Below, piece after piece: positions 1,521 to 60,250 of a DNA stretch of 64,000 bases. A program made the translations under genes and the position numbers. Below the pieces are notes generated by a model that was not told where the DNA came from, did no database searches, and saw only the letters and a list, made by a program, of their open reading frames with translations. This DNA is from Bacteroidales bacterium (GTDB lineage Bacteria > Bacteroidota > Bacteroidia > Bacteroidales > UBA4181). Location: contig JAVBNI010000001.1 in NCBI GenBank assembly GCA_031551645.1, positions 10,902-74,901 on the forward strand, read 5' to 3'. Numbering within the stretch: the first letter of the stretch is position 1; every line of letters begins with the position of its first letter.

Positions 1521-4500
1521 TTAAAAAGTAACAGATAAGCCAAAAGAAAATACTTTTGTCAAGGGGTACACGTTTCCTTCGCTATAACGGTTGTCGCCCC
1601 CGCTAACCTGTTCGGGATCGAAAATCTTGGTTAGTTTTGTTCCTGTCCACAGATTTTCTCCCGACACAAAAAATCTCAATTTTTGTATGGCTATCTTTTG
1701 TGTCAGGGACGGTGGTAAAGAATATCCTAATTGTACGTTTTTTAATCGGATATATGCAGCGTTCAGCAAGTACCGGGTTTGTACCTGGATATTCTTTTTT
1801 ACATTGAATACGGGACGGGCATAATAAGCATCCAGATTGAGGCCTAATGGGTGATCCGGATCATCGCGAAAGTAATCCAAGTGTTGAACGAGACAAGTCG
1901 ATTCCTGATAATTTCGTCGCGAGCCCCAGAAATAATAACTTTCATTGATGTAATCCCGTTTCATAATGCCCTGAAAAAATGCCCTGAAATCGAACCCTTT
2001 CCAGTCCATGTTCAGATCCAGTCCGAACATGAAACGAGCCTGTGAATTCCCAATAACTTTCCTGTCGCCAGGTTTTTCAAGGGTACTTGCACCGGCATCT
2101 ATTTTCCCATCGCCATCCAGGTCGGCATACATGATGTCTCCGGCTTTCCAGTCTGTTCCAAAACTAGCCTGTGCTCCGTTGGGCATGGTTGCCAGGTGTG
2201 TATCTATTTCTTCTTGTGTTCGTGCAATACCTGCTGTAACATATCCCCATAGTTCCCCATATTTTTGCCCGGCGTAATATGTCTTAAGGCTACCGGTTTC
2301 ATTCGGGTATCTGGTGATTTCGGTTTGGGAATCGGATAACAAAAACCGGATATTATATCTGAGTCCGTTCTTTAAGTAATCGTTCCACGACACCTCCCAT
2401 TCAAAACCGTATGTTTTCAGGTCGGTGTTATTTGTAGTGGGAACATCTGTTCCCAAGGTAGCCGGCAGTTCAGGTGCAGGGCCGACCATGTCGATTGTTT
2501 TACGGACAAAGTAATCGAATGAAGAGGTCAACCGGTTATTGAAAAAACCGAGATCGGCCCCGACATTCCATGTGCTTACCCGTTCCCATGTCAAGCTTGA
2601 ACTAACAAGACCGGGAGCATTAGCGGTATTGGGCCTTGAGCCTTTGGACAGCCAACTACCGTTAGCCGCCGTTACATCCATGGTCACATAAGTAGGATAC
2701 AACATGTCTGTATTCTGATTTCCCAATGAGCCGTAAGATGCTCTGAATTTTAACGTATTTATCTTGTTATCCAGTGATTCCCAGAAAGCTTCCCGGGCTA
2801 TATTCCATCCGACAGATACCGAAGGGAACCATTTCCAACGTTCATTCCCCCGGAATCGGGAGGAACCGTCATAACGGAGATTACCTTCCAGCAGATAACG
2901 ACCCTGATAGTCGTAATTTATTCTGCCAAAGAATCCAACAACCGACCAATCATCGTTGTAGCCGGAAACTTTTGCATTAATTTCTTTTCCGGTCTCGGGA
3001 TCAATACCCGATGTAGTATTCAATGAGGTAAGGGAGGGTATAACTATACCGGATCTATTGGCCATGATTTGGTGTGTTTTGGTCAATTCAGACTGAAATC
3101 CAAGCAATACTTTTGCGTGATGTCCGCCAAAATCCCTATTATACTCTGTCCATATGTTGGTGTTGTAGTAATTTTGTCGTGCAGCTTGTTCCGTAACAGA
3201 TGAGTTCGTTATGGTTACATAAGGATTTCCTGCTACATCGTGGTCATATAAAGGAAGTTGGTTGGCACTGTTAAACCAGTCTTTCATTCGGAAATTGCCT
3301 TCTCCGAAAATTTTCCAACCTTTCAACGGTTCTATCAATACCTGTACCTGTTGGTATAACTGGTCGGTCTGTGTATTGGTTCGTCCTCCATCGTTAAGCC
3401 TGATGGCATTGGAATAGGTCGCATTATACATGTGCCCATTAGGGTCGTATACCGGGAATATAGGCCATCCGAGATTTGCAAGACTATAAAATAGGTTTTC
3501 ATTCATAAACGTCGGTTTTTCATAATTTTCCCGAATAAACCTTCCTGTATAGTTCACTGAAAAATAGTCATTTAACCGGGCATTTATTTTTCCTGTGAGT
3601 AAATATCTGGAATAGTCATCCCCGCCTATAGCCATAAATCCCTCCTTGCCCAGGTAATTACCGGATATGTAATAGGTGAATCCCTCCTTACCGCCGTTCA
3701 CACTTATATTGTGTTCTTGTGCAAATGTGCGTTTTTTGTATATTACATCATACCAGTCTACATTACCGTTTGCTTTTTCATAATCGGCCCATTGGTTGGG
3801 ATTAGAAGAACTAACAGGCACCGATTCCTTAAGTGTCCCGTTCTGGTATGCAAGAATACGTTGCATCTGTTCCTGGTCGAAAAATACACTCGATCCGCTG
3901 TTGGTAAAACTATCATTCCAATAGATGGCGAATTTGTATGAGTCGGCCATCTGGGGCATGTTGATCGGATAATTCAACCGGAAGTTGTTGTTATAATTAA
4001 TGGTTGCCCGCCCGGTTTTTCCATTTTTGGTGGTGATCAAGATCACTCCGAAAGGTGCCCGGGATCCATAGATAGAAGAAGCGGCTGCATCTTTTAACAC
4101 CGATATATGTTCGATATCCTGCGAATTGACAGTATTCAGATCTCCTTCCATGCCATCTATCAGAACCAGGGGTTGTCCGCTGGAACCTTCTCCGATTGTG
4201 GTAATACCACGGATGTTGATATTTGGGGTTGTTCCCATGTCACCTTCGGTTTGTGTAATATTCAATCCGGCAACCAAGCCTTGCAAAGCTTGTGTTGCAT
4301 TTTGTACCGGGCGCGATTCAAGTGCTTTAACATCGACCGTGCCCACTGCTCCGGTCAGGTTGACTTTCTTTTGTGTGCCGAAACCTACTACCACCACTTC
4401 TTCAAGCTGGTGTGTATCTTCAGCCATATGAACGTCGATAACGTGCATGTCGCCAACTTCAAATTCCTGCGTTGTATAGCCGACGAATGAAAATATCAGA

Positions 4501-5015
4501 ACAGTTCCTTTTTCGGGTACTGTAATGCTGTATTTCCCGTTGATATCGGTTACCATTCCGGTTGTAGTACCTTTAATGATGATATTCACTCCCGGTATAG
4601 GTTCACCGTTTTCAGTGACGGTTCCGGTAACAGTGATACCCTGTGCTACCGCTTTGGGCGTAATTACAATAAATTTATGCTCATGTTCAAGATAAGTAAG
4701 ATCGGTATCTTTAAAGACAATATCCAAAAGTTTACCTACTTCAATATCCTGCTGATGGATGGTAATGGGACGAGTCAAATCGAGGAATGCATCGTTATAG
4801 AAAAATGTGTATTCGGTTTGTTTTTCAATAACTTTTAATACTTCTTTGATCGAAGTACTTTTTCCTGTCTTGTCGAAATGTACGACCTGGGCAAAAACAC
4901 CAGCCGATACATTCCAGACAAAAACGATACTGATCAGCATGCTAATTTTCATAATTAATAAAAATTTGCGATATACTTTTTTCGAATGATTAAAAAAATA
5001 ACGATAGAATTTCAT
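1521..5015 (-). CDS. SusC/RagA-family TonB-dependent transporter with an N-terminal STN signalling extension
   Basis: 1164 aa. It has an STN-like N-terminal extension (HFDKTGKSTSIKEVLKVIEKQTEYTFFYND...FIVITP), a CarboxypepD_reg-like segment (ITVTGTVTENGEPIPGVNIIIKGTTTGMVTDINGKYSI), a plug (VVVVGFGTQKKVNLTGAV...VLKDAAASSIYGSRAPFGVILITTK), and a long barrel ending in an aromatic residue (...GLSVTF). It follows FecR and an ECF sigma. Confidence 0.9.
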   Translation of the reverse strand: MKFYRYFFNHSKKVYRKFLLIMKISMLISIVFVWNVSAGVFAQVVHFDKTGKSTSIKEVLKVIEKQTEYTFFYNDAFLDLTRPITIHQQDIEVGKLLDIVFKDTDLTYLEHEHKFIVITPKAVAQGITVTGTVTENGEPIPGVNIIIKGTTTGMVTDINGKYSITVPEKGTVLIFSFVGYTTQEFEVGDMHVIDVHMAEDTHQLEEVVVVGFGTQKKVNLTGAVGTVDVKALESRPVQNATQALQGLVAGLNITQTEGDMGTTPNINIRGITTIGEGSSGQPLVLIDGMEGDLNTVNSQDIEHISVLKDAAASSIYGSRAPFGVILITTKNGKTGRATINYNNNFRLNYPINMPQMADSYKFAIYWNDSFTNSGSSVFFDQEQMQRILAYQNGTLKESVPVSSSNPNQWADYEKANGNVDWYDVIYKKRTFAQEHNISVNGGKEGFTYYISGNYLGKEGFMAIGGDDYSRYLLTGKINARLNDYFSVNYTGRFIRENYEKPTFMNENLFYSLANLGWPIFPVYDPNGHMYNATYSNAIRLNDGGRTNTQTDQLYQQVQVLIEPLKGWKIFGEGNFRMKDWFNSANQLPLYDHDVAGNPYVTITNSSVTEQAARQNYYNTNIWTEYNRDFGGHHAKVLLGFQSELTKTHQIMANRSGIVIPSLTSLNTTSGIDPETGKEINAKVSGYNDDWSVVGFFGRINYDYQGRYLLEGNLRYDGSSRFRGNERWKWFPSVSVGWNIAREAFWESLDNKINTLKFRASYGSLGNQNTDMLYPTYVTMDVTAANGSWLSKGSRPNTANAPGLVSSSLTWERVSTWNVGADLGFFNNRLTSSFDYFVRKTIDMVGPAPELPATLGTDVPTTNNTDLKTYGFEWEVSWNDYLKNGLRYNIRFLLSDSQTEITRYPNETGSLKTYYAGQKYGELWGYVTAGIARTQEEIDTHLATMPNGAQASFGTDWKAGDIMYADLDGDGKIDAGASTLEKPGDRKVIGNSQARFMFGLDLNMDWKGFDFRAFFQGIMKRDYINESYYFWGSRRNYQESTCLVQHLDYFRDDPDHPLGLNLDAYYARPVFNVKKNIQVQTRYLLNAAYIRLKNVQLGYSLPPSLTQKIAIQKLRFFVSGENLWTGTKLTKIFDPEQVSGGDNRYSEGNVYPLTKVFSFGLSVTF

Positions 5016-52762: not shown

Positions 52763-54025
52763 TTAATTTCCGAAATCGTCGAACGCCAACATTTCCTGCG
52801 GAACGCCGAGGTTGTCGAGCATCTTGATGACGGCGGCAGCCATCGGGCCGGGACCGCACATGTAATATTCGATATCTTCGGGCGCCTCGTGCTTGCTCAG
52901 GTAATTGTCGTAAATCACCTGGTGGATAAAGCCCACATAACCCGTCCAATTGTCTTCGGGACGCGGTTCGCTCAATGCGATATTGAACGTAAAATTCGGG
53001 AATTCCTTTTCGATAGCCCGGAAATCTTCTTCATAGAAGATCTCATTTTTAGAACGAGCACCATACCAGTACGACACCTTACGATCGGTTGTTTTCAACG
53101 TATGGAACAGGTGGAACAGGTGCGAACGCAACGGAGCCATACCGGCGCCGCCGCCGATGTATAACATTTCGCGTTTGGTATCCTTGATGAAGAATTCACC
53201 GTAAGGCCCGGAAACAGTCACCTTGTCACCCGGCTTACGCGAGAAAATGTATGACGAGCAAACCCCCGAAGGCACATTCGCCCAGTTGCATTTGGGCCTA
53301 TCCCACGGCGGTGTGGCGATACGAATATTCAGCATCACGATATTGCCTTCAGCCGGATGGTTGGCCATGGAGTACGCACGGTAAGTTTCCTCGGTATTGG
53401 TCATTTTCAAATCCCACAATTTGAATTTGTCCCACTCGGCGCGGAAACGTTCGTCGACGTCTATGTCCTTAAAATTCATACTGTATTGCGGCACATCAAT
53501 CTGGATGTATCCGCCCGACTTGAAATTGAGTTTCTCACCTTCGGGCAACTTCACCACAAACTCCTTGATGAACGAAGCCACATTCCGGTTCGATACTACT
53601 TCACATTCCCATTTCTTGATACCCATCACTTCTTCGGGCACATGTATCTTCATGTCATTGCGAACCTTCACCTGGCAACCCAAACGCCAATCCTGTTGTA
53701 TCTGTTTACGGGTAAAGAAACCCACTTCGGTAGGCAGGATCGTTCCACCGCCTTCCACTACCTGGCATTTACACATACCGCAAGTACCACCTCCACCGCA
53801 TGCCGACGGTAAGAAAATTTTCTGTGCCGACAAGGTTGCTAAAAGCGATGATCCTGGCGCAGCATCTACCTTATCTTCCCCTTCATTAATATCGATGGTT
53901 ACGTTTCCCAGGGGCACTAGTTTCTTTTTGGCATACAGCAATAATATAACCAAAAACAAAATGGCTATCAGGAATACAACCATGCTCGTGACGATAGTGG
54001 TCATTTGTGAGGCTAACAAAATCAT
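52763..54025 (-). CDS. nqrF: Na+-translocating NADH:quinone oxidoreductase subunit F
   Basis: 420 aa. It has an N-terminal TM helix, a [2Fe-2S] motif ([12 protein letters not shown]), FAD-binding RAYSMAN and NADH-binding GGGAGMAP. Confidence 0.95.
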
Positions 54026-54064: not shown

Positions 54065-54682
54065 TTACAATTTAATCCCCATGAAACTCATAAATGCAAT
54101 AGCCATCAGGCCGGTAGTGATGAACGTAATGCCAAGGCCTTTGAGAGGCTCGGGAATTTGCGAATAACTCATCTTTTCGCGGATGGCAGCCAAACCAATG
54201 ATCGCCAACCACCAACCGATGCCGGAACCGAGTGCGTATGAAGTAGCTTCGCCGATATTGAGGAACTCGCGCTCCTGCATGAACAGCGATGCCCCCATGA
54301 TGGCGCAGTTTACTGCAATTAACGGGAGGAAAATACCCAACGATGAATAAAGCGCCGGGGCAAACTTTTCAACAACCATTTCCACCAATTGCACCATGGC
54401 GGCGATAACGGCAATGAACATGATAAAACTCAGGAAGCTGAGGTCTACGTCAGCGAACGAAGAGCCTAACCATGACAACGCACCGGCTTTCAGTATATAG
54501 TTTTCCAACAAATAGTTGACCGGAACAGTAATCAACAACACGAAAGTAACTGCGATCCCAAGCCCCATCGATGTTTTCACCGTTTTGGATACTGCCAGGT
54601 ACGAACACATACCCAGGAAGTATGCAAAAATCATGTTGTCGATAAAAATCGACTTGATAAAAATGTTAACTATATTTTCCAT
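54065..54682 (-). CDS. nqrE: Na+-NQR subunit E
   Basis: A polytopic RnfA/NqrE-like protein. I place the start at the ATG at 54682 ([26 protein letters not shown]...) rather than the ORF-track start at 54736, which adds 18 atypical residues. Confidence 0.9.
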
Positions 54683-54757: not shown

Positions 54758-55384
54758 TTATTTCTTCGCTTCCTTCGTATTTGCCCTTTGTATCCAGATA
54801 ATCACACCCACAATGATCAATGCCATCGGTGGGAGGATGATCAGGTTGTTGTTGTGGTAACCAAAATCGTAGAATGCCTGAGGTATGATTTTAATTCCCA
54901 GCAAGGTGCCCGAACCGAGCAACTCGCGCACGAAAGCCACGATCACCAGGATCAGTCCGTAACCAGCGCCACTTCCAATACCGTCCAGGAACGAGGGCCA
55001 CGGCTTGTTGGCCATAGCAAAAGCTTCCAAACGGCCCATGATGATACAGTTGGTAATGATCAACCCCACGAATACTGACAATTGCTTGCTCACATCGTAG
55101 GCATAAGCCTTCAATATCTGGTCGACAATAATTACCAATGCGGCAATCACCACTAATTGCACAATGATACGGATACTATTGGGTATAAAGTTACGAATGC
55201 TCGATATAATCAGGTTTGAGAATCCCGTTACGGCTGTCACCGACAAGGCCATCACCAATGCAGGTTCGAGTTTCACCGTTACGGCCAACGCCGAACAAAT
55301 CCCCAATACCTGTATCGTCACCGGGTTGTTGGTGATGATGGGTTCGAATAACGGTTTAAGTTTTTTTGATGAAAATACGCTCAT
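54758..55384 (-). CDS. nqrD: Na+-NQR subunit D
   Basis: 208 aa, a polytopic RnfE/NqrD-like protein ([18 protein letters not shown]). Its position between nqrC and nqrE fits. Confidence 0.9.
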
Positions 55385-55386
55385 TT

Positions 55387-56091
55387 TCAGTTCGATTTAT
55401 GTTGTGAAAAATAAGTCTGGTAAGGTTCGAGGCTGTTAAACATCATCGCTTCAAGTCCCTTGCTGGTGATGGTTCCGCCCGAAATAGCGTCCACTGTGTG
55501 ATCGTCAGGCATATAAGTCCCAATTTTTTCCACTTTTATGGAAACGAACTTGTTCGAGCTGTCGAACAATTTTTTGTTTTGAAACTGATGTTCAAAGGGA
55601 GTGGTATTGATTTCCGCTCCCAAACCCGGCGTTTCGCCTTTATGGTCAAACGTAGTACCATACACCGTGTTCATATCGTTTGCCACAGCAACATTGCCCC
55701 AAATCGGTCCCCATAATCCCGTTCCCCTTACGGGAATCACCACAAACGACTTACCATCCTTTTCGGCAAGATATACCGGTAATAAACGTTCATTTTCAGG
55801 CTTTGCATTTTCTTTTTTCAGGTCGATCTTTTCGGGCGTTTCGCCGCTCACCGTGCTGCCATCGGCTTTGATCACAATACCTTGCTTGATGTATTGCGGG
55901 TATTTCGTCAACACGTCAGCCGGGGTCGATTCCACACCCAGAGCAGCCAAAATATTTTGTTGGCGCTCGATTTCGATATTCTCTTGCTGCTTATCCGCCA
56001 ACGAAAGTGATGTAAAGGATAAGGCTGCTGCCACCAACAGCACCAGCGCCGAAGAGAAGCAAAATATATACAGATTACTAAATTGTTTCAT
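55387..56091 (-). CDS. nqrC: Na+-NQR subunit C
   Basis: 234 aa with a single N-terminal TM helix and the FMN attachment motif [12 protein letters not shown]. Confidence 0.9.
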
Positions 56092-56134
56092 TTTTATCTT
56101 GTTACAATTCTTTCTTAATATTTAATTCTTCATA

Positions 56135-56491
56135 TTATGACTCATACGTTTGTTCAATATCGCCAAGCAACTTGTCAACACCCACTCTAAGTTTAGGCAG
56201 GTGGTAGATTACGATGCCCCAAACGGTTTCGTTGCTTACATTATCGTAGGCGTGAATGACCCGATTGCGTAAACTCACTATTTTCCTTGCATTGTCAATG
56301 ACAATACTTGAATCAAGTTGAAGAATCTTGCTTACAGCTTCGCCTATAATCTCCAATTCACGCTCTACGGAACGGCGCAATTGTTTGTTTGCCATATATG
56401 TGTCAAAATTACGCTGTTCGCCCAAATACTCATAGATGGAATCAATCGAGGTACGAATATCAAACAAATATTTTTGAATTTTAAGCAGCAT
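56135..56491 (-). CDS. hepT: HepT-like (DUF86) toxin of a type VII toxin-antitoxin pair
   Basis: 118 aa. The Rx4HxY motif is present (LRNRVIHAYDNV). It overlaps the upstream NTase gene by 11 bp. Confidence 0.8.
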   Translation of the reverse strand: MLLKIQKYLFDIRTSIDSIYEYLGEQRNFDTYMANKQLRRSVERELEIIGEAVSKILQLDSSIVIDNARKIVSLRNRVIHAYDNVSNETVWGIVIYHLPKLRVGVDKLLGDIEQTYES

Positions 56492-56789
56492 ATATCAGCT
56501 GTTTTGTTTGTTCGATACTGCGGATAAAATAGGGATTGGTCAACGTTTTTTCGACAACTAAATCTACATTTCGACCGAAAAGTTCTTCAAGTTCGAACAT
56601 CAGGTCAAAATAATTGTCGGCATATTCATTCAAACCAACATCATTCCGAAATGAGATCAAGAAGTCGATATCGCTGTTTTCATTGAAAGCATCGGTATTC
56701 GCCGACCCAAATACATACATCGTCGTCACGCGATACTTTTTACAAAGCACCATTACTTGCGGAATTTTATCTGCTATAATGCGTTTCAT
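56481..56789 (-). CDS. mntA: MntA-like minimal nucleotidyltransferase antitoxin
   Basis: The GSx10DxD motif is present (FGSANTDAFNENSDIDF). The ORF-track start at 56795 is a TTG, so I prefer the ATG at 56789 (MKRIIADK...). Confidence 0.8.
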   Translation of the reverse strand: MKRIIADKIPQVMVLCKKYRVTTMYVFGSANTDAFNENSDIDFLISFRNDVGLNEYADNYFDLMFELEELFGRNVDLVVEKTLTNPYFIRSIEQTKQLIYAA

Positions 56790-56818
56790 TCTCAATTCTC
56801 AATTCTCAATTCTCAATT
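56788..56818 (-). repeat. Tandem heptamer array (GAATTGA/AATTGAG x4 on the coding strand) filling the nqrB-mntA junction
   Basis: The minus strand reads ...GTCAGTAAT TGA gaattgagaattgagaattgaga ATG. The nqrB stop codon (56813-56815) is the first TGA of the array, and the mntA ATG (56787-56789) directly follows the last unit. Confidence 0.8.
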
Positions 56819-57970
56819 ACTGACTGTTACCCGTTTCAATCTCCGTTTAATGTTGGCATTCACCACGTAATAATCGATCAGCGGTGCGAAGGTATTCATC
56901 AGCAGGATGGACAACATCATGCCTTCGGGATAACTCGGGTTAAGTACGCGAATTAATACTGCGATAAAACCGATCAGGAATCCGTAAATTATTTTACCCG
57001 TAGCGGTATGCGAACCCGAAACCGGATCGGTAGCCATAAACACGGCGCCGAATGCAAAGCCTCCCATTACTAAGTGGTAGTATGGCGGCAATGCCATGTA
57101 ATCGTTTATCGCCACAAGGTTCAACAGGAAACCAACGCCCAGTGCACCAAGTACACACGAGAACATTATCTTCCAACTGCCGATACCTGTGTATATCAAT
57201 ATTACCGCGCCAAGCAGAATGGCCAGTGTCGATGTTTCGCCAATGGAACCGGGAATAAAACCGAAAAACATATCACCCACCGATGGTAATTTGCTGAACT
57301 CGCCGGCTGTGGCATGCGCCAGCGGCGTAGCGCCCGAAGCCGCGTCAATCAACGGCTGTTTGCCAATACCGGCAATCCACACCTTGTCGCCCGAAATGTG
57401 CGACGGGTAGGCGAAGAACACGAAAGCCCGCGCCAGCAGCGCCGGATTAAAGATGTTCATTCCTGTACCGCCAAACACTTCTTTGCCGATGATAACCGCA
57501 AAAGCGGTGGCCAGCGCCACCATCCAGAGGGGAACGCCCACCGGCATAATCAACGGAATCAACATACCGGTTACCAGAAAACCTTCGTTTACCTCGTGTC
57601 CGCGGATTTGCGCCGCAATAAATTCAATGCCCAATCCCGTAACATACGACACTATAATAATAGGAAGTACTTTTAAAAAGCCGAACCAGAACATTTCCCC
57701 AAAACCCATGGCTGCACCGAATGCATGTGCATGCTGATAGCCCACATTCCACATACCGAACAGCAGGGCCGGAAGCAAAGCCACAATCACCACGGTCATT
57801 GTGCGCTTCAGGTCAATGCTGTCGTGGATGTGCGTGCCCGACTTTGAAGTTGTGTTAGGCACAAACACAAAAGTCTCGAACGCATCGAACGTCGAATGCA
57901 GGAAGCCAAGCTTACCGCCCTTTTCAAAAGGAGGTTTGATTTTATCTATAATCGTTCTTAAAAAATTCAT
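56813..57970 (-). CDS. nqrB: Na+-NQR subunit B
   Basis: 385 aa and polytopic. The conserved FMN-site region reads AVFMATDPVSGSHT. Confidence 0.95.
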   Translation of the reverse strand: MNFLRTIIDKIKPPFEKGGKLGFLHSTFDAFETFVFVPNTTSKSGTHIHDSIDLKRTMTVVIVALLPALLFGMWNVGYQHAHAFGAAMGFGEMFWFGFLKVLPIIIVSYVTGLGIEFIAAQIRGHEVNEGFLVTGMLIPLIMPVGVPLWMVALATAFAVIIGKEVFGGTGMNIFNPALLARAFVFFAYPSHISGDKVWIAGIGKQPLIDAASGATPLAHATAGEFSKLPSVGDMFFGFIPGSIGETSTLAILLGAVILIYTGIGSWKIMFSCVLGALGVGFLLNLVAINDYMALPPYYHLVMGGFAFGAVFMATDPVSGSHTATGKIIYGFLIGFIAVLIRVLNPSYPEGMMLSILLMNTFAPLIDYYVVNANIKRRLKRVTVSN

Positions 57971-57972
57971 CG

Positions 57973-59322
57973 CTACATTTCTTTAATCATTAACTCAATT
58001 CCGTTGCGCAAAATTTCCTGCACTTTTATTTTCGAGGGGCAAATAAATTCGCACAATGCCAGGTCTTCTTCCGTCACTTCGTAAATGCCGAGCTGCTCCA
58101 TCTTGTCGATATCCTTTGCCAGTATGGCTTTCAGAAGGTAGGTCGGATAAATGTCCATCGGCAATACTTTTTCGTACTGCCCGTTCATTACAAATGCACG
58201 CTCGCCGCCGTTGAGGTTCGTGTCCAGTGTATACTCCTTGTCAGGCGCTATCCACGAAAGGTAGCTGCGCGAGAAACTGTATTTTTTCAACCGGAGCGGA
58301 TTGGCCCACCCGAAAAATTCGTAATGGTTACCTTCGGGAATTATGCTGAGCGCATTATCGTAAAAACCCAGGTGTCCTTGTGCCCCAATGTTTACGCCGG
58401 TTAGCACATTGCCACTGATGTAGCGTGGGTTATTCGTAGTGTCAATAAATTCGGACACACACGAAATGCCAGCCCCTGCAATCATACGGAAGTAACGCGG
58501 TTTTTTTACTTCGGAACCAACCAATGCAACGACTTTCGATACATCATAAATCCCTTTAAGGAAAAGCCGTCCCAGCGATACGATATGTTGCGGATCAATC
58601 GTCCACACCACTTCCCCTTTATTTATAGGGTCGATATGATGTATTTGTACGCCTACATTTCCGGCAGGGTGGGGGCCAACGAAGGTATTCGTTTCAAACC
58701 CTTTTGCCTTGCGGAAAATGCTTGTAGCAGCCACTTCGTTGTTCAAGCCTAAATATATTTTAGGACTCAATTTGCGCAGTACATCTATTCCTTTTTGGAA
58801 TGCTTCGCCCTCGCCGGTCAACACAAAATCCATGTCGGGCGCAAGCGGTGCACTGTCGAAGCCCGATATAAAAATTGCTTTCGGCATGTCTGCCGGATTT
58901 GCTACAATGCTGTAGGGGCGCTGCTTGATGAACGGCCATACCCCGGCGGTAAGCATCAGTGCCATCACCTCGTTGCGGCTCATGGTTCCCAGCTCGCCCA
59001 CGGTATGCTGGAAATACTCCTGTTGTGCGGCAGGCGCCACTTCAATGGCGAGCAGTTTGCGCTTGTCGCCGCGCACCACGGCGCTCACCGTGCCGCTCAC
59101 CGGCGATACATATTGCACCTCGGGGCGGTATTTATCCACAAAAAGCGGCGAACCGGCCAATACCGTATCGCCCTCTTTGACCACCGGCTTCGGCACCAAC
59201 TGGTGGAAGTCCATAGGTTTTACCGCATAGTTGGCTACTGCGCCGGTTTTCGAGAGCACTTTTTCGGCCCGTCCCTTTAGCGAAATATCAAGCCCCTTGC
59301 GGATTTTAAAGACTTTTGACAT
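57973..59322 (-). CDS. nqrA: Na+-NQR subunit A
   Basis: 449 aa and soluble, with a typical N-terminus (FKIRKGLDISLKGRAE). It is the first gene of the operon. Confidence 0.95.
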   Translation of the reverse strand: MSKVFKIRKGLDISLKGRAEKVLSKTGAVANYAVKPMDFHQLVPKPVVKEGDTVLAGSPLFVDKYRPEVQYVSPVSGTVSAVVRGDKRKLLAIEVAPAAQQEYFQHTVGELGTMSRNEVMALMLTAGVWPFIKQRPYSIVANPADMPKAIFISGFDSAPLAPDMDFVLTGEGEAFQKGIDVLRKLSPKIYLGLNNEVAATSIFRKAKGFETNTFVGPHPAGNVGVQIHHIDPINKGEVVWTIDPQHIVSLGRLFLKGIYDVSKVVALVGSEVKKPRYFRMIAGAGISCVSEFIDTTNNPRYISGNVLTGVNIGAQGHLGFYDNALSIIPEGNHYEFFGWANPLRLKKYSFSRSYLSWIAPDKEYTLDTNLNGGERAFVMNGQYEKVLPMDIYPTYLLKAILAKDIDKMEQLGIYEVTEEDLALCEFICPSKIKVQEILRNGIELMIKEM

Positions 59323-59359
59323 AGAGAAATGTTTAGTTTCCTAATTAAAACAGAATTTG

Positions 59360-59367
59360 CAAAGATA
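59360..59367 (-). promoter_or_regulatory. Bacteroidota -7 promoter box (TAnnTTTG on the minus strand)
   Basis: The plus strand reads CAAAGATA, i.e. TATCTTTG on the minus strand. It lies 38 bp upstream of the nqrA ATG. Confidence 0.45.
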
Positions 59368-59558
59368 GCAAAATTTGAGGAATTACAAAGCTTCATATCT
59401 ACTGAAAAGATTTTCATGTGCCGATTTTTCTTAAATTTATATATTAAACGGTACCGATTTTTTAGATTATTTGTAAGTTAGAAAAATAGTGCTACATTTG
59501 TAAAATAATTATGCTCTTTACATAGTAGTTGAAAAGTACTTTTATTCAATTCAGAAAT

Positions 59559-59651
59559 CTCGTAAATTTCAAAATTCGTAAGGATAAAAGTGACTTCTGT
59601 ACTCCTAAATGGGAAACGCGGATGTTACTTATTACGAATTGGGTTTACGAG
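59559..59651. repeat. Long interrupted hairpin built on ACGAATT/TTACGAG motifs
   Basis: ctcgtaaa (59559-59566) pairs with tttacgag (59644-59651), and aattcgtaa (59573-59581) pairs with ttacgaatt (59632-59640). The loop is about 50 nt. Confidence 0.5.
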
Positions 59652-59752
59652 AACCTCTGAATTTATAGGTACTGCCGCGTTTATATTTTTGAGGTAATCT
59701 ATAATAAATAATGCAAAACGGCAGTAGTTGCAAAAATGCAGCAGGGGTTTCT

Positions 59753-59787
59753 AATTGACGATTGACAAATGACAATTGATAATTGGC
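59753..59787 (+). repeat. Tandem heptamer array (AATTGAN-type x5)
   Basis: The array reads aattgac gattgac aaatgac aattgat aattggc. Confidence 0.7.
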
Positions 59788-59931
59788 GCAAAACGTACGA
59801 GTGGAGGTGGACGATTTTCCGCCCGAATAGAAAATAAAAAGAGAAATGGTTAACGGATAGTAGCCCGTAGGGCATTAACAAGAACAGTAGTAGCAGCGGG
59901 AACCGGTAAAAAGGTTTGTGTTTGTTGTAAC

Positions 59932-59970
59932 ACAGATTTCGCAGATTGAGAACAGATTTCACAGATGAGT
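59932..59970 (+). repeat. Adjacent direct repeat ACAGATTTCNCAGATNGAG x2
   Basis: The two copies are acagatttcgcagattgag and acagatttcacagatgag. Confidence 0.6.
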
Positions 59971-60074
59971 ATGCGGAAAATGTGGATAAAAAAACCGGCT
60001 CCCAAAGCTACACCATTATAAACTAAAAATTTAGTTAAAAAAATATACAGTTAATAAATGAATACGTTACGCAG

Positions 60075-60206
60075 GAGATGTCTCCACTTCGTGTTTGGCA
60101 AAAATTCCGCCAAACGCCCCGGTCGACATAACGGTTGACCTGATGGAAAGACAAGAGCCGTCATGTCGACCGGAACGAGCGGCAGCGAGTGAAGTGGAGA
60201 CATCTC
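60075..60206. repeat. 132-bp nested inverted repeat with three-way-junction topology (candidate structured RNA or MITE)
   Basis: The outer 16-bp perfect stem is gagatgtctccacttc (60075-60090) with gaagtggagacatctc (60191-60206). Inner hairpin 1 is gtttggc...gccaaac (60093-60115). Inner stem 2 is cggtcgacat (60120-60129) with atgtcgaccg (60163-60172), extended by acgg/ccgt. The element ends 45 bp upstream of the ATG at 60251. Confidence 0.65.
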
Positions 60207-60250
60207 GCCCCAGGCACTAAAATAGAACAACAACTAAAAAACTAATTGAT

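Follow-up and report, generated by a model that had tools for sequence, protein, structure and literature searches.

A HepT/MntA-family toxin-antitoxin pair inserted between nqrB and nqrC in the Na+-NQR operon of Bacteroidales

In most descriptions, toxin-antitoxin (TA) modules are autonomous units that regulate themselves and reside on mobile DNA or genomic islands. Chromosomal TA pairs that share transcripts with host operons include mazEF, upstream of the Staphylococcus aureus sigB operon, and ndoAI/ndoA of Bacillus subtilis; these pairs belong to type II families, are located 5' of the other genes, and carry their own promoter. Here we describe a pair of genes of the HepT/MntA family that lies inside the operon for the Na+-translocating NADH:quinone oxidoreductase (Na+-NQR), between nqrB and nqrC, in a 64,000-nucleotide (64-kb) stretch of a Bacteroidales genome (assembly GCA_031551645.1, contig JAVBNI010000001.1, positions 10,902 to 74,901; the whole stretch is referred to below as the window). 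Class I HEPN/MNT modules are recognized by neighboring genes with PF01909 and PF01934 domains, an antitoxin gene located upstream, a GSX10DXD motif, and an RX4HXY motif with a tyrosine that acts as the AMP acceptor (Yao et al. 2020, PMC7641770). Operons gain genes at their ends far more often than in their interior (Price, Arkin and Alm 2006, "The Life-Cycle of Operons," PMC1480536), and the searchable literature yielded no description of a TA pair within an nqr operon. The module type is already known; what is unusual is its conserved, variably present context in the nqr operon. The locus probably represents an old, promoterless type VII TA insertion that is expressed with nqr, persists beside an empty allele, and moves between lineages.

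The pair and its insertion site

Based on the list of open reading frames (ORFs) and on Pfam, the gene order on the minus strand is nqrA-nqrB-mntA-hepT-nqrC-nqrD-nqrE-nqrF. All eight ORFs (six nqr genes, mntA, and hepT) exceed the Pfam gathering scores, and the six Na+-NQR subunit genes are intact, in the order A to F, with the expected domains. The contiguity of nqrABCDEF is broken by two unrelated genes between nqrB and nqrC. Coordinates are those of the window, lengths are in nucleotides (nt) or amino acids (aa), and L001 to L005 are relatives introduced below.

56481-56789, minus strand: mntA, 102 aa from the ATG (104 aa if the TTG start at 56795 is used), predicted minimal nucleotidyltransferase antitoxin, PF01909/PF18765
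56135-56491, minus strand: hepT, 118 aa, HEPN/DUF86 toxin family, PF01934
56092-56820, minus strand: insert-specific segment, 729 nt, defined by aligning the filled junctions of the window and L001 with the empty ones of L002 to L005
56092-56134, minus strand: A-rich spacer from the hepT stop codon to the nqrC ATG, 43 nt, insert-derived
57973-59322, minus strand: nqrA, Pfam NQRA, divergent, of a type like that of lineage X (see below)
56813-57970, minus strand: nqrB, Pfam NQR2_RnfD, a mosaic gene
55387-56091, minus strand: nqrC, Pfam FMN_bind, 3' of the TA pair
54758-55384, minus strand: nqrD, Pfam Rnf-Nqr, 3' of the TA pair
54065-54682, minus strand: nqrE, Pfam Rnf-Nqr, 3' of the TA pair
52763-54025, minus strand: nqrF, Pfam Fer2/FAD/NAD, 3' of the TA pair

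The mntA ATG lies 23 nt from the nqrB stop codon, the nqrC ATG lies 43 nt from the hepT stop codon, and mntA and hepT overlap by 11 bp. An earlier note on this DNA, made from the sequence alone, had given the same gene order, protein sizes, gaps, and overlap, all of which proved exact on recomputation. No second copy of the TA pair was found in the window, and an Rfam search of the window returned no match. Look-ups by exact sequence of HepT, MntA, and NqrC retrieved no recorded entry.

The pair is a real insertion at the nqrB-nqrC junction. Five species-level relatives (L001 to L005) were retrieved via NqrC, and four of these Bacteroidales genomes (L002 to L005) have an empty site, with 11 to 12 nt from the nqrB stop codon to the nqrC ATG. 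The operon is contiguous at this junction in L002 to L005 and contiguous throughout in three further sequences (L013 to L015), so that the co-oriented insertion into an otherwise contiguous nqrABCDEF proposed in the earlier note is borne out by empty sites in four related genomes. In the alignment of L002 to L005, the empty junction reads GTCA, AAGCATAAATTCGAAAGAAG, ATG; in the window and L001, the filled junction reads GTCA, GTAATTGAG...GATAAAA, ATG. The 729 nt of the insert replace approximately 20 nt, comprising the two final codons of nqrB, its stop codon, and the 12-nt spacer, and the C terminus of NqrB is altered by the insert from KA to SN. The last ~22 nt of the 43-nt hepT-nqrC spacer are common to the window and L001 and absent from the empty sites, and this insert-derived spacer now serves as the translation-initiation region of nqrC. 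The empty sites share AAAGCATAA and the spacer, a sequence that is missing from the filled alleles, and therefore the empty sites are not deletion derivatives of a filled allele. Two of the empty-site genomes (L002 and L003) are metagenome-assembled genomes (MAGs) that belong to the Gx series; a different MAG of this series was obtained from the lower termite Glyptotermes.

The identity of the pair was assessed from domains, motifs, and predicted fold. MntA matches PF01909 (2e-15) and PF18765 (6e-15), and HepT matches PF01934 (1.5e-16), with Pfam scores for the pair of 57.3 bits (cutoff, 21) and 60.6 bits (cutoff, 23.5). The MntA motif GSx10DxD is present as G28-S29-ANTDAFNENS-D40-I-D42, with G28, S29, D40, and D42 invariant in 10 aligned copies, and the HepT motif Rx4HxY is present as R75-NRVI-H80-A-Y82, with R75, H80, and Y82 invariant among 24 homologues; the two hallmark motifs that the earlier note had recognized are thus still intact on alignment of homologues. 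MntA also matches models of the PADLOC candidate defense system PDC-S09 (best match, 1.3e-31), and HepT has no match among the PADLOC models. HepT used alone as a query found no match in the PDB, and a HepT family profile was needed; the profile aligns the motif region with that of the Shewanella HepT structures 5YEP and 6M6U (LRNRVIHAYD to LRNIAVHDYQ). An AlphaFold2 model of HepT (predicted local distance difference test score, 85.2) was compared with the PDB, and the top 28 matches were HepT/HEPN toxins (template modeling [TM] score, 0.55 to 0.72; probability, 0.94 to 1.00); the best fold matches (TM score, 0.67 to 0.72) were all HepT toxins, with nothing else convincing. The pair therefore shows the domains, the antitoxin-first order, both motifs, and the HEPN helical fold of class I HEPN/MNT modules. 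We predict that it is a genuine type VII (class I HEPN/MNT) TA module of a distant subfamily, in which HepT would be toxic and MntA would act by AMPylation.

The left boundary of the window allele carries a short repeat.

56788-56818, minus strand: tandem heptamer AATTGAG, 4.4 copies (Tandem Repeats Finder; 100% matches; score, 62)

This array covers the nqrB stop codon and the mntA start codon together with the 23 nt between them and occurs in the window allele only; the corresponding place in L001 holds one AATTGA, and the motif is absent there from the other filled alleles. The array resembles a product of slippage, and changes in it could alter the distance between nqrB and mntA from strain to strain.

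Recurrence, age, and exchange of the filled junction

Members of the HepT/MntA family are located between nqrB and nqrC in five further contigs (L001, L022, L023, L028, and L031), and the six filled contigs, including the window, come from different assemblies and projects, comprising NCBI MAGs and four metagenome contigs from the Joint Genome Institute (JGI). A metagenome scan with NqrC confirmed no relatives, whereas a scan with MntA yielded 80 loci, among which screening with Nqr proteins identified the four additional nqrB-TA-nqrC contigs (L022, L023, L028, and L031). L022 and L031 represent one lineage. The NqrB sequences of L022 (full length) and L023 (a fragment) are of the L002-to-L005 type (81 to 88% identity).

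The filled alleles differ in their states of preservation. The MAG L001 has the same two junctions as the window with mntA only; its MntA is intact, with 91% amino acid identity to that of the window, and the comparison of the two mntA genes (nonsynonymous divergence [dN] of 0.047 and synonymous divergence [dS] of 0.29) indicates purifying selection. Codons ~8 to 118 of hepT have been cleanly deleted from L001 (positions 540 to 620 of that contig), and the first ~7 codons are fused to the 3' spacer. In L023, the embedded hepT (117 aa) extends 17 nt past the nqrC ATG (positions 1159 to 1175) and is followed by nqrC and nqrD, an overlap that suggests translational coupling. In L028, a second, unrelated nucleotidyltransferase ORF (YGSFAKGTQHEWSDIDV..., with a GSx10DxD motif) lies directly 3' of hepT (positions 851 to 1034) and is cut by the contig end; this ORF may be part of a further MNT/HEPN module placed beside the first at this junction.

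The catalytic motifs are kept in all embedded copies. Between lineages, the embedded mntA and hepT genes have dN/dS ratios of ~0.05 to 0.2 and dS values of 0.5 to 1.2, and the dS values of the flanking nqr genes are 0.8 to 1.9. Judged by these divergence estimates, the embedding is an old association under purifying selection. The nearest family members outside nqr operons (72 to 85% amino acid identity) occur in unrelated contexts in metagenome contigs, always with a 102-aa MntA and an 11-bp overlap, which would be in keeping with an origin within the lineage. Among these non-nqr copies, L026 has mntA without a detectable hepT, and L027 and L035 retain no more than the C-terminal half of hepT; in this family, the toxin seems commonly to be lost while the antitoxin is kept.

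The window and L001 alleles are more closely related than the operons in which they reside. Based on nqrC to nqrF, the partner of the window is L005 or L003 and that of L001 is L004 (90 to 94% DNA identity), and all three of these nearest relatives by flanks are empty at the junction. For the window and L001, dS was 0.29 for mntA (bootstrap range, 0.15 to 0.48) versus 1.05 to 1.42 for the flanking genes, and synonymous differences at conserved residues numbered 15 of 93 in mntA versus 408 of 1,054 in the flanks (Fisher P = 9e-6). Because the codon bias of highly expressed nqr genes would, if anything, lower nqr dS, this contrast is conservative. The mntA genes of the two genomes are far younger than the nqr genes around them, and lateral exchange of the filled allele is therefore indicated. 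The simplest reading is that the filled (or the empty) allele was exchanged by homologous recombination, and the crossovers may have occurred in two highly conserved segments, the final ~50 nt of nqrB and the initial ~30 nt of nqrC. We also considered whether the nqrB fragment of L001 is of the window type; this was rejected, as the fragment is of the relatives' type and 93 to 94% identical to that of L004.

Expression of the pair and competing explanations

Promoters were sought with the Bacteroidetes consensus TTTG-N17-23-TAnnTTTG, a pattern that models such promoters only crudely and that matched 7 times in the 64 kb, versus 3.8 matches expected. The sole full match in or next to the operon on the minus strand ends 37 nt upstream of the nqrA ATG.

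59360-59389, minus strand: candidate Bacteroidetes-type promoter, TTTG-N18-TATCTTTG, consensus match only

No consensus promoter was found between 52763 and 59322 (nqrF to nqrA), in a scan that cannot exclude one inside the nqrB coding sequence. A terminator scan (10 matches versus 9.0 expected, none in the insert) and a sigma-70 promoter scan (17 versus 15.3 expected) remained at background level and are uninformative for Bacteroidetes. No stable hairpin was found at either junction, and both junctions fold less stably than shuffled controls; the minimum free energy of the 43-nt hepT-nqrC spacer is -6.9 kcal/mol (z = +1.1). Across alleles, the spacer on the upstream side of the pair measures 4 to 35 nt and that on the downstream side 43, 35, or -17 nt, which is too little for independent signals. 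Given that neither a promoter consensus nor a terminator hairpin was found from nqrA to nqrF, the scans are most economically explained by read-through transcription, and the TA pair is likely cotranscribed with nqr. The earlier note had stated that transcription of nqrC to nqrF must read through the TA pair, a view that these scans support as the most economical one. The ~930 nt 5' of nqrA (59323-60250) contain no noteworthy ORF, have a GC content of 0.26 to 0.33 near 59300-59800, and form an intergenic stretch that is unusually long for the window and has no Rfam match.

We propose that a promoterless module entered the nqrB-nqrC junction long ago in a Bacteroidales clade of which at least some members come from termite guts, and that the insertion replaced the ~20 nt comprising the end of nqrB and the 12-nt spacer. 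RNA polymerase would start upstream of nqrA and read through nqrA, nqrB, mntA, hepT, and nqrC to nqrF, and the tail of the insert would supply the region from which nqrC translation is initiated. HepT would act as an RNase toxin, and MntA would neutralize it by AMPylating the tyrosine of Rx4HxY. The filled allele would persist under purifying selection alongside the empty allele and would move between diverged lineages, most simply by homologous recombination via the 3' end of nqrB and the 5' end of nqrC, and decay would proceed in the expected order, with the toxin lost first, as in L001. Retention likely reflects addiction or defense benefits, together with the damage that imprecise deletion would cause to an important operon.

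Several observations weigh against this account. All of the sequences compared are MAGs or metagenome contigs. Both proteins miss the NCBIfam equivalog cutoffs of 60 bits (HepT_toxin, NF047751, 35.3 bits; MntA_antitoxin, NF047752, 47.3 bits) and therefore belong to a distant subfamily and are not equivalogs of the characterized proteins. A -7-like motif inside hepT (TAATTTTG, 56411-56404) lacks a correctly spaced -33 element, and a weak internal promoter is possible. In a neighbor-joining tree of mntA, the window groups with L001 (95% bootstrap support) and L022 groups with L031 (98%), and the group formed by the six embedded copies has a bootstrap value of 7%. The junction sequences also differ between lineages, with nqrB tails and upstream spacers of SN and 23 nt, KY and 4 nt, NVSSVKN and 16 nt, and IMI and 35 nt, and the embedded copies may therefore have more than one origin.

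The low bootstrap value and the differing nqrB tails and spacers would also fit a hotspot at the nqrB-nqrC junction, where related TA cassettes were inserted repeatedly, through site preference or microhomology, in place of one insertion followed by inheritance and recombination. The extra nucleotidyltransferase gene after hepT in L028 and an unrelated PstS-like gene that separates nqrD from nqrE in L002 and L003 point in the same direction. However, the embedded copies do group in the mntA tree, both junction sequences of the window recur in L001 in exact register, and the window and L022/L031 share the left-junction sequence GTCAGT..AAT(T)..GAATTG. In addition, no integrase or transposase ORF adjoins the insert, and no conserved ends or inverted repeats, such as would mark a mobile cassette, flank eight family copies. 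Repeated insertion is a serious alternative that we nonetheless hold to be unlikely.

The pair could also have been turned to the benefit of its host. If the pair had been domesticated to serve the nqr operon or respiration, through processing or tuning of nqr mRNA or as an ATP-dependent brake responsive to energy status, and were not a selfish or defense element, its long retention under purifying selection inside the operon and the absence of its own promoter in the consensus scan would be expected, as would the 17-nt overlap of hepT with the nqrC start in L023; the use of ATP as a substrate by MntA is established for the family (PMC7641770). Such domestication is quite unlikely, however, as four close relatives function without the pair, the same family occurs in many unrelated contexts, and the loss of the toxin with retention of the antitoxin in L001 is typical TA decay and not the behavior of a co-opted pair. 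We also entertain, as a speculation with little chance of holding in full, a joint reading in which the nqrB-nqrC junction is a long-lived docking site for a promoterless module carried on the transcript of a core respiratory operon, the allele is exchanged between species by homologous recombination, and the balance of toxin and antitoxin is coupled to respiration, so that the module would be no simple passenger but an energy-status-dependent growth brake or an abortive-infection switch. If such coupling were true, both proteins would be made in proportion to nqr expression, and MntA would need ATP to keep HepT AMPylated.

The earlier note had described the insert as more AT-rich than its flanks, implying a recent or foreign origin. 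The GC contents of mntA and hepT (0.375 and 0.395) and their GC contents at third codon positions (GC3; 0.41 and 0.42) are indeed lower than those of the nqr genes (GC, 0.45 to 0.50; GC3, 0.51 to 0.60). Compared with the 46 long ORFs of the window (mean GC, 0.431 [standard deviation, 0.041]; mean GC3, 0.447 [standard deviation, 0.069]), however, the pair is ordinary and the nqr genes deviate: the latter are GC3-rich outliers, whereas the GC3 of mntA and hepT lies within one standard deviation of the mean. The pair is close to the ORF average of the window and is therefore compositionally native and ordinary for the genome. The GC3 of the nqr genes fits the codon bias of highly expressed genes, and the embedded TA genes are without that bias. 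A recent, lineage-specific insertion of foreign AT-rich DNA would accommodate the deficit of 6 to 12 GC points relative to the flanking nqr genes and the empty sites of four close relatives, but it is very unlikely in view of the native composition, the five additional filled contigs in diverged lineages with dS values of 0.5 to 1.2 between TA copies (similar to those of the flanks), and the lack of a close relative in plasmid and phage collections (best match, 53% identity). The earlier note had named an ancient, fixed arrangement of native composition, common among related genomes, as the finding that would contradict it; age and composition largely fit that description, and the arrangement is variable among relatives, not fixed.

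A separate anomaly, not remarked on in the earlier note, is that nqrB of the window is mosaic. The window NqrA and NqrB are 54 to 56% and 70 to 72% identical, respectively, to those of L002 to L005, which are mutually 86 to 97% identical, and 75 to 76% and 80 to 81% identical to those of L013 to L015, which represent a different lineage (X) with a contiguous operon and an NqrC only 38% identical to that of the window. The window NqrC to NqrF, on the other hand, are 86 to 98% identical to those of L002 to L005, and the DNA identity of nqrC to nqrF between the window and L001 to L005 is 82 to 86%. Sliding-window identity indicated that the first ~887 nt of nqrB resemble L013 to L015 and that the last ~270 nt are of the L002-to-L005 type, and a maximum chi-square analysis of informative sites located the breakpoint at 57080-57084 (permutation P <= 0.0005), a conserved part of nqrB that lies ~270 nt upstream of the insert. 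A breakpoint coinciding with the TA insert was rejected, both because these two analyses place it ~270 nt upstream and because the insert sits in the relatives' nqrB type in L022 and L023. No synteny with the relatives was found upstream of nqrA. The nqrA gene and the 5' part of nqrB represent either a xenologous replacement by recombination or a chimeric assembly join; because both flanks of the insert are of the relatives' type, the mosaic leaves the TA finding unaffected. That the locus as a whole is an assembly artifact, a chimera joined where a TA cassette is repeated or an nqr segment is conserved, with a gene order found in no real genome, is barely credible: the TA family is multicopy in these communities, the type switch lies in a conserved nqrB stretch, and synteny is lacking upstream of nqrA, but six contigs from different assemblies and projects show the nqrB-mntA join, the hepT-nqrC join, or both, and a chimera ~270 nt away would not touch the insert.

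The operons of the relatives contain irregularities of their own. Between nqrD and nqrE, the empty-site genomes L002 (~4010-5000) and L003 (5341-6330) carry a co-oriented gene for a 329-aa lipoprotein-like protein with a PstS-family match below the cutoff (TIGR02136, 128 versus 207 bits), which represents a second, independent insertion in the same operon and the same clade. In L004, nqrA (1359-2708) has one internal stop codon and is a pseudogene or reflects a sequencing or assembly error.

Significance and comparison with described systems

The locus would represent a TA module that has long resided in a core energy-conserving operon, in several diverged lineages and under selection, and that comes with a natural toxin-deletion variant. 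It may serve as a natural test case for whether embedding in an important operon protects a selfish module from deletion, whether the host exploits such a module, and how alleles of this sort pass from one species to another in the absence of a mobile element. It also calls for caution in annotation and metabolic reconstruction, as an "interrupted" nqr operon need not be a broken one.

Compared with the canonical nqrABCDEF operon of Vibrio and Bacteroidetes, represented here by L002 to L005 and L013 to L015, the window has the same six intact genes in the usual order. It differs in being split between nqrB and nqrC, in the change of the NqrB C terminus from KA to SN, in an nqrC initiation region that derives from the insert, and in an nqrA gene and 5' nqrB segment of a different lineage type. 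Like mazEF-sigB and ndoAI/ndoA, the pair would be a TA pair on a transcript with housekeeping or regulatory genes; unlike them, it is internal, apparently promoterless, assigned to type VII, and located in the operon of a respiratory complex.

As in the operon insertions of Price et al. (PMC1480536), a newcomer has been placed in a native operon and would be expressed from the native promoter. In the present case, the inserted genes are a TA pair, and the inserted state is variable among relatives and long-lived. The closest characterized system is HepT/MntA of Shewanella oneidensis (SO_3166/SO_3165; PDB 5YEP, 6M6U, and 7BXO; PMC7641770 and PMC4621449). Both pairs have the antitoxin gene first and the toxin gene second, the PF01909 and PF01934 domains, and the GSx10DxD and Rx4HxY motifs, and the model of the window HepT superposes on the Shewanella HepT structures with TM scores of 0.67 to 0.70. 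In contrast, sequence identity is only ~20%, the window HepT is shorter (118 aa versus 133 to 139 aa in the Shewanella system), and, whereas the Shewanella pair is a free-standing bicistronic unit, the pair in the window lies within another operon, set off by spacers of just 23 and 43 nt.

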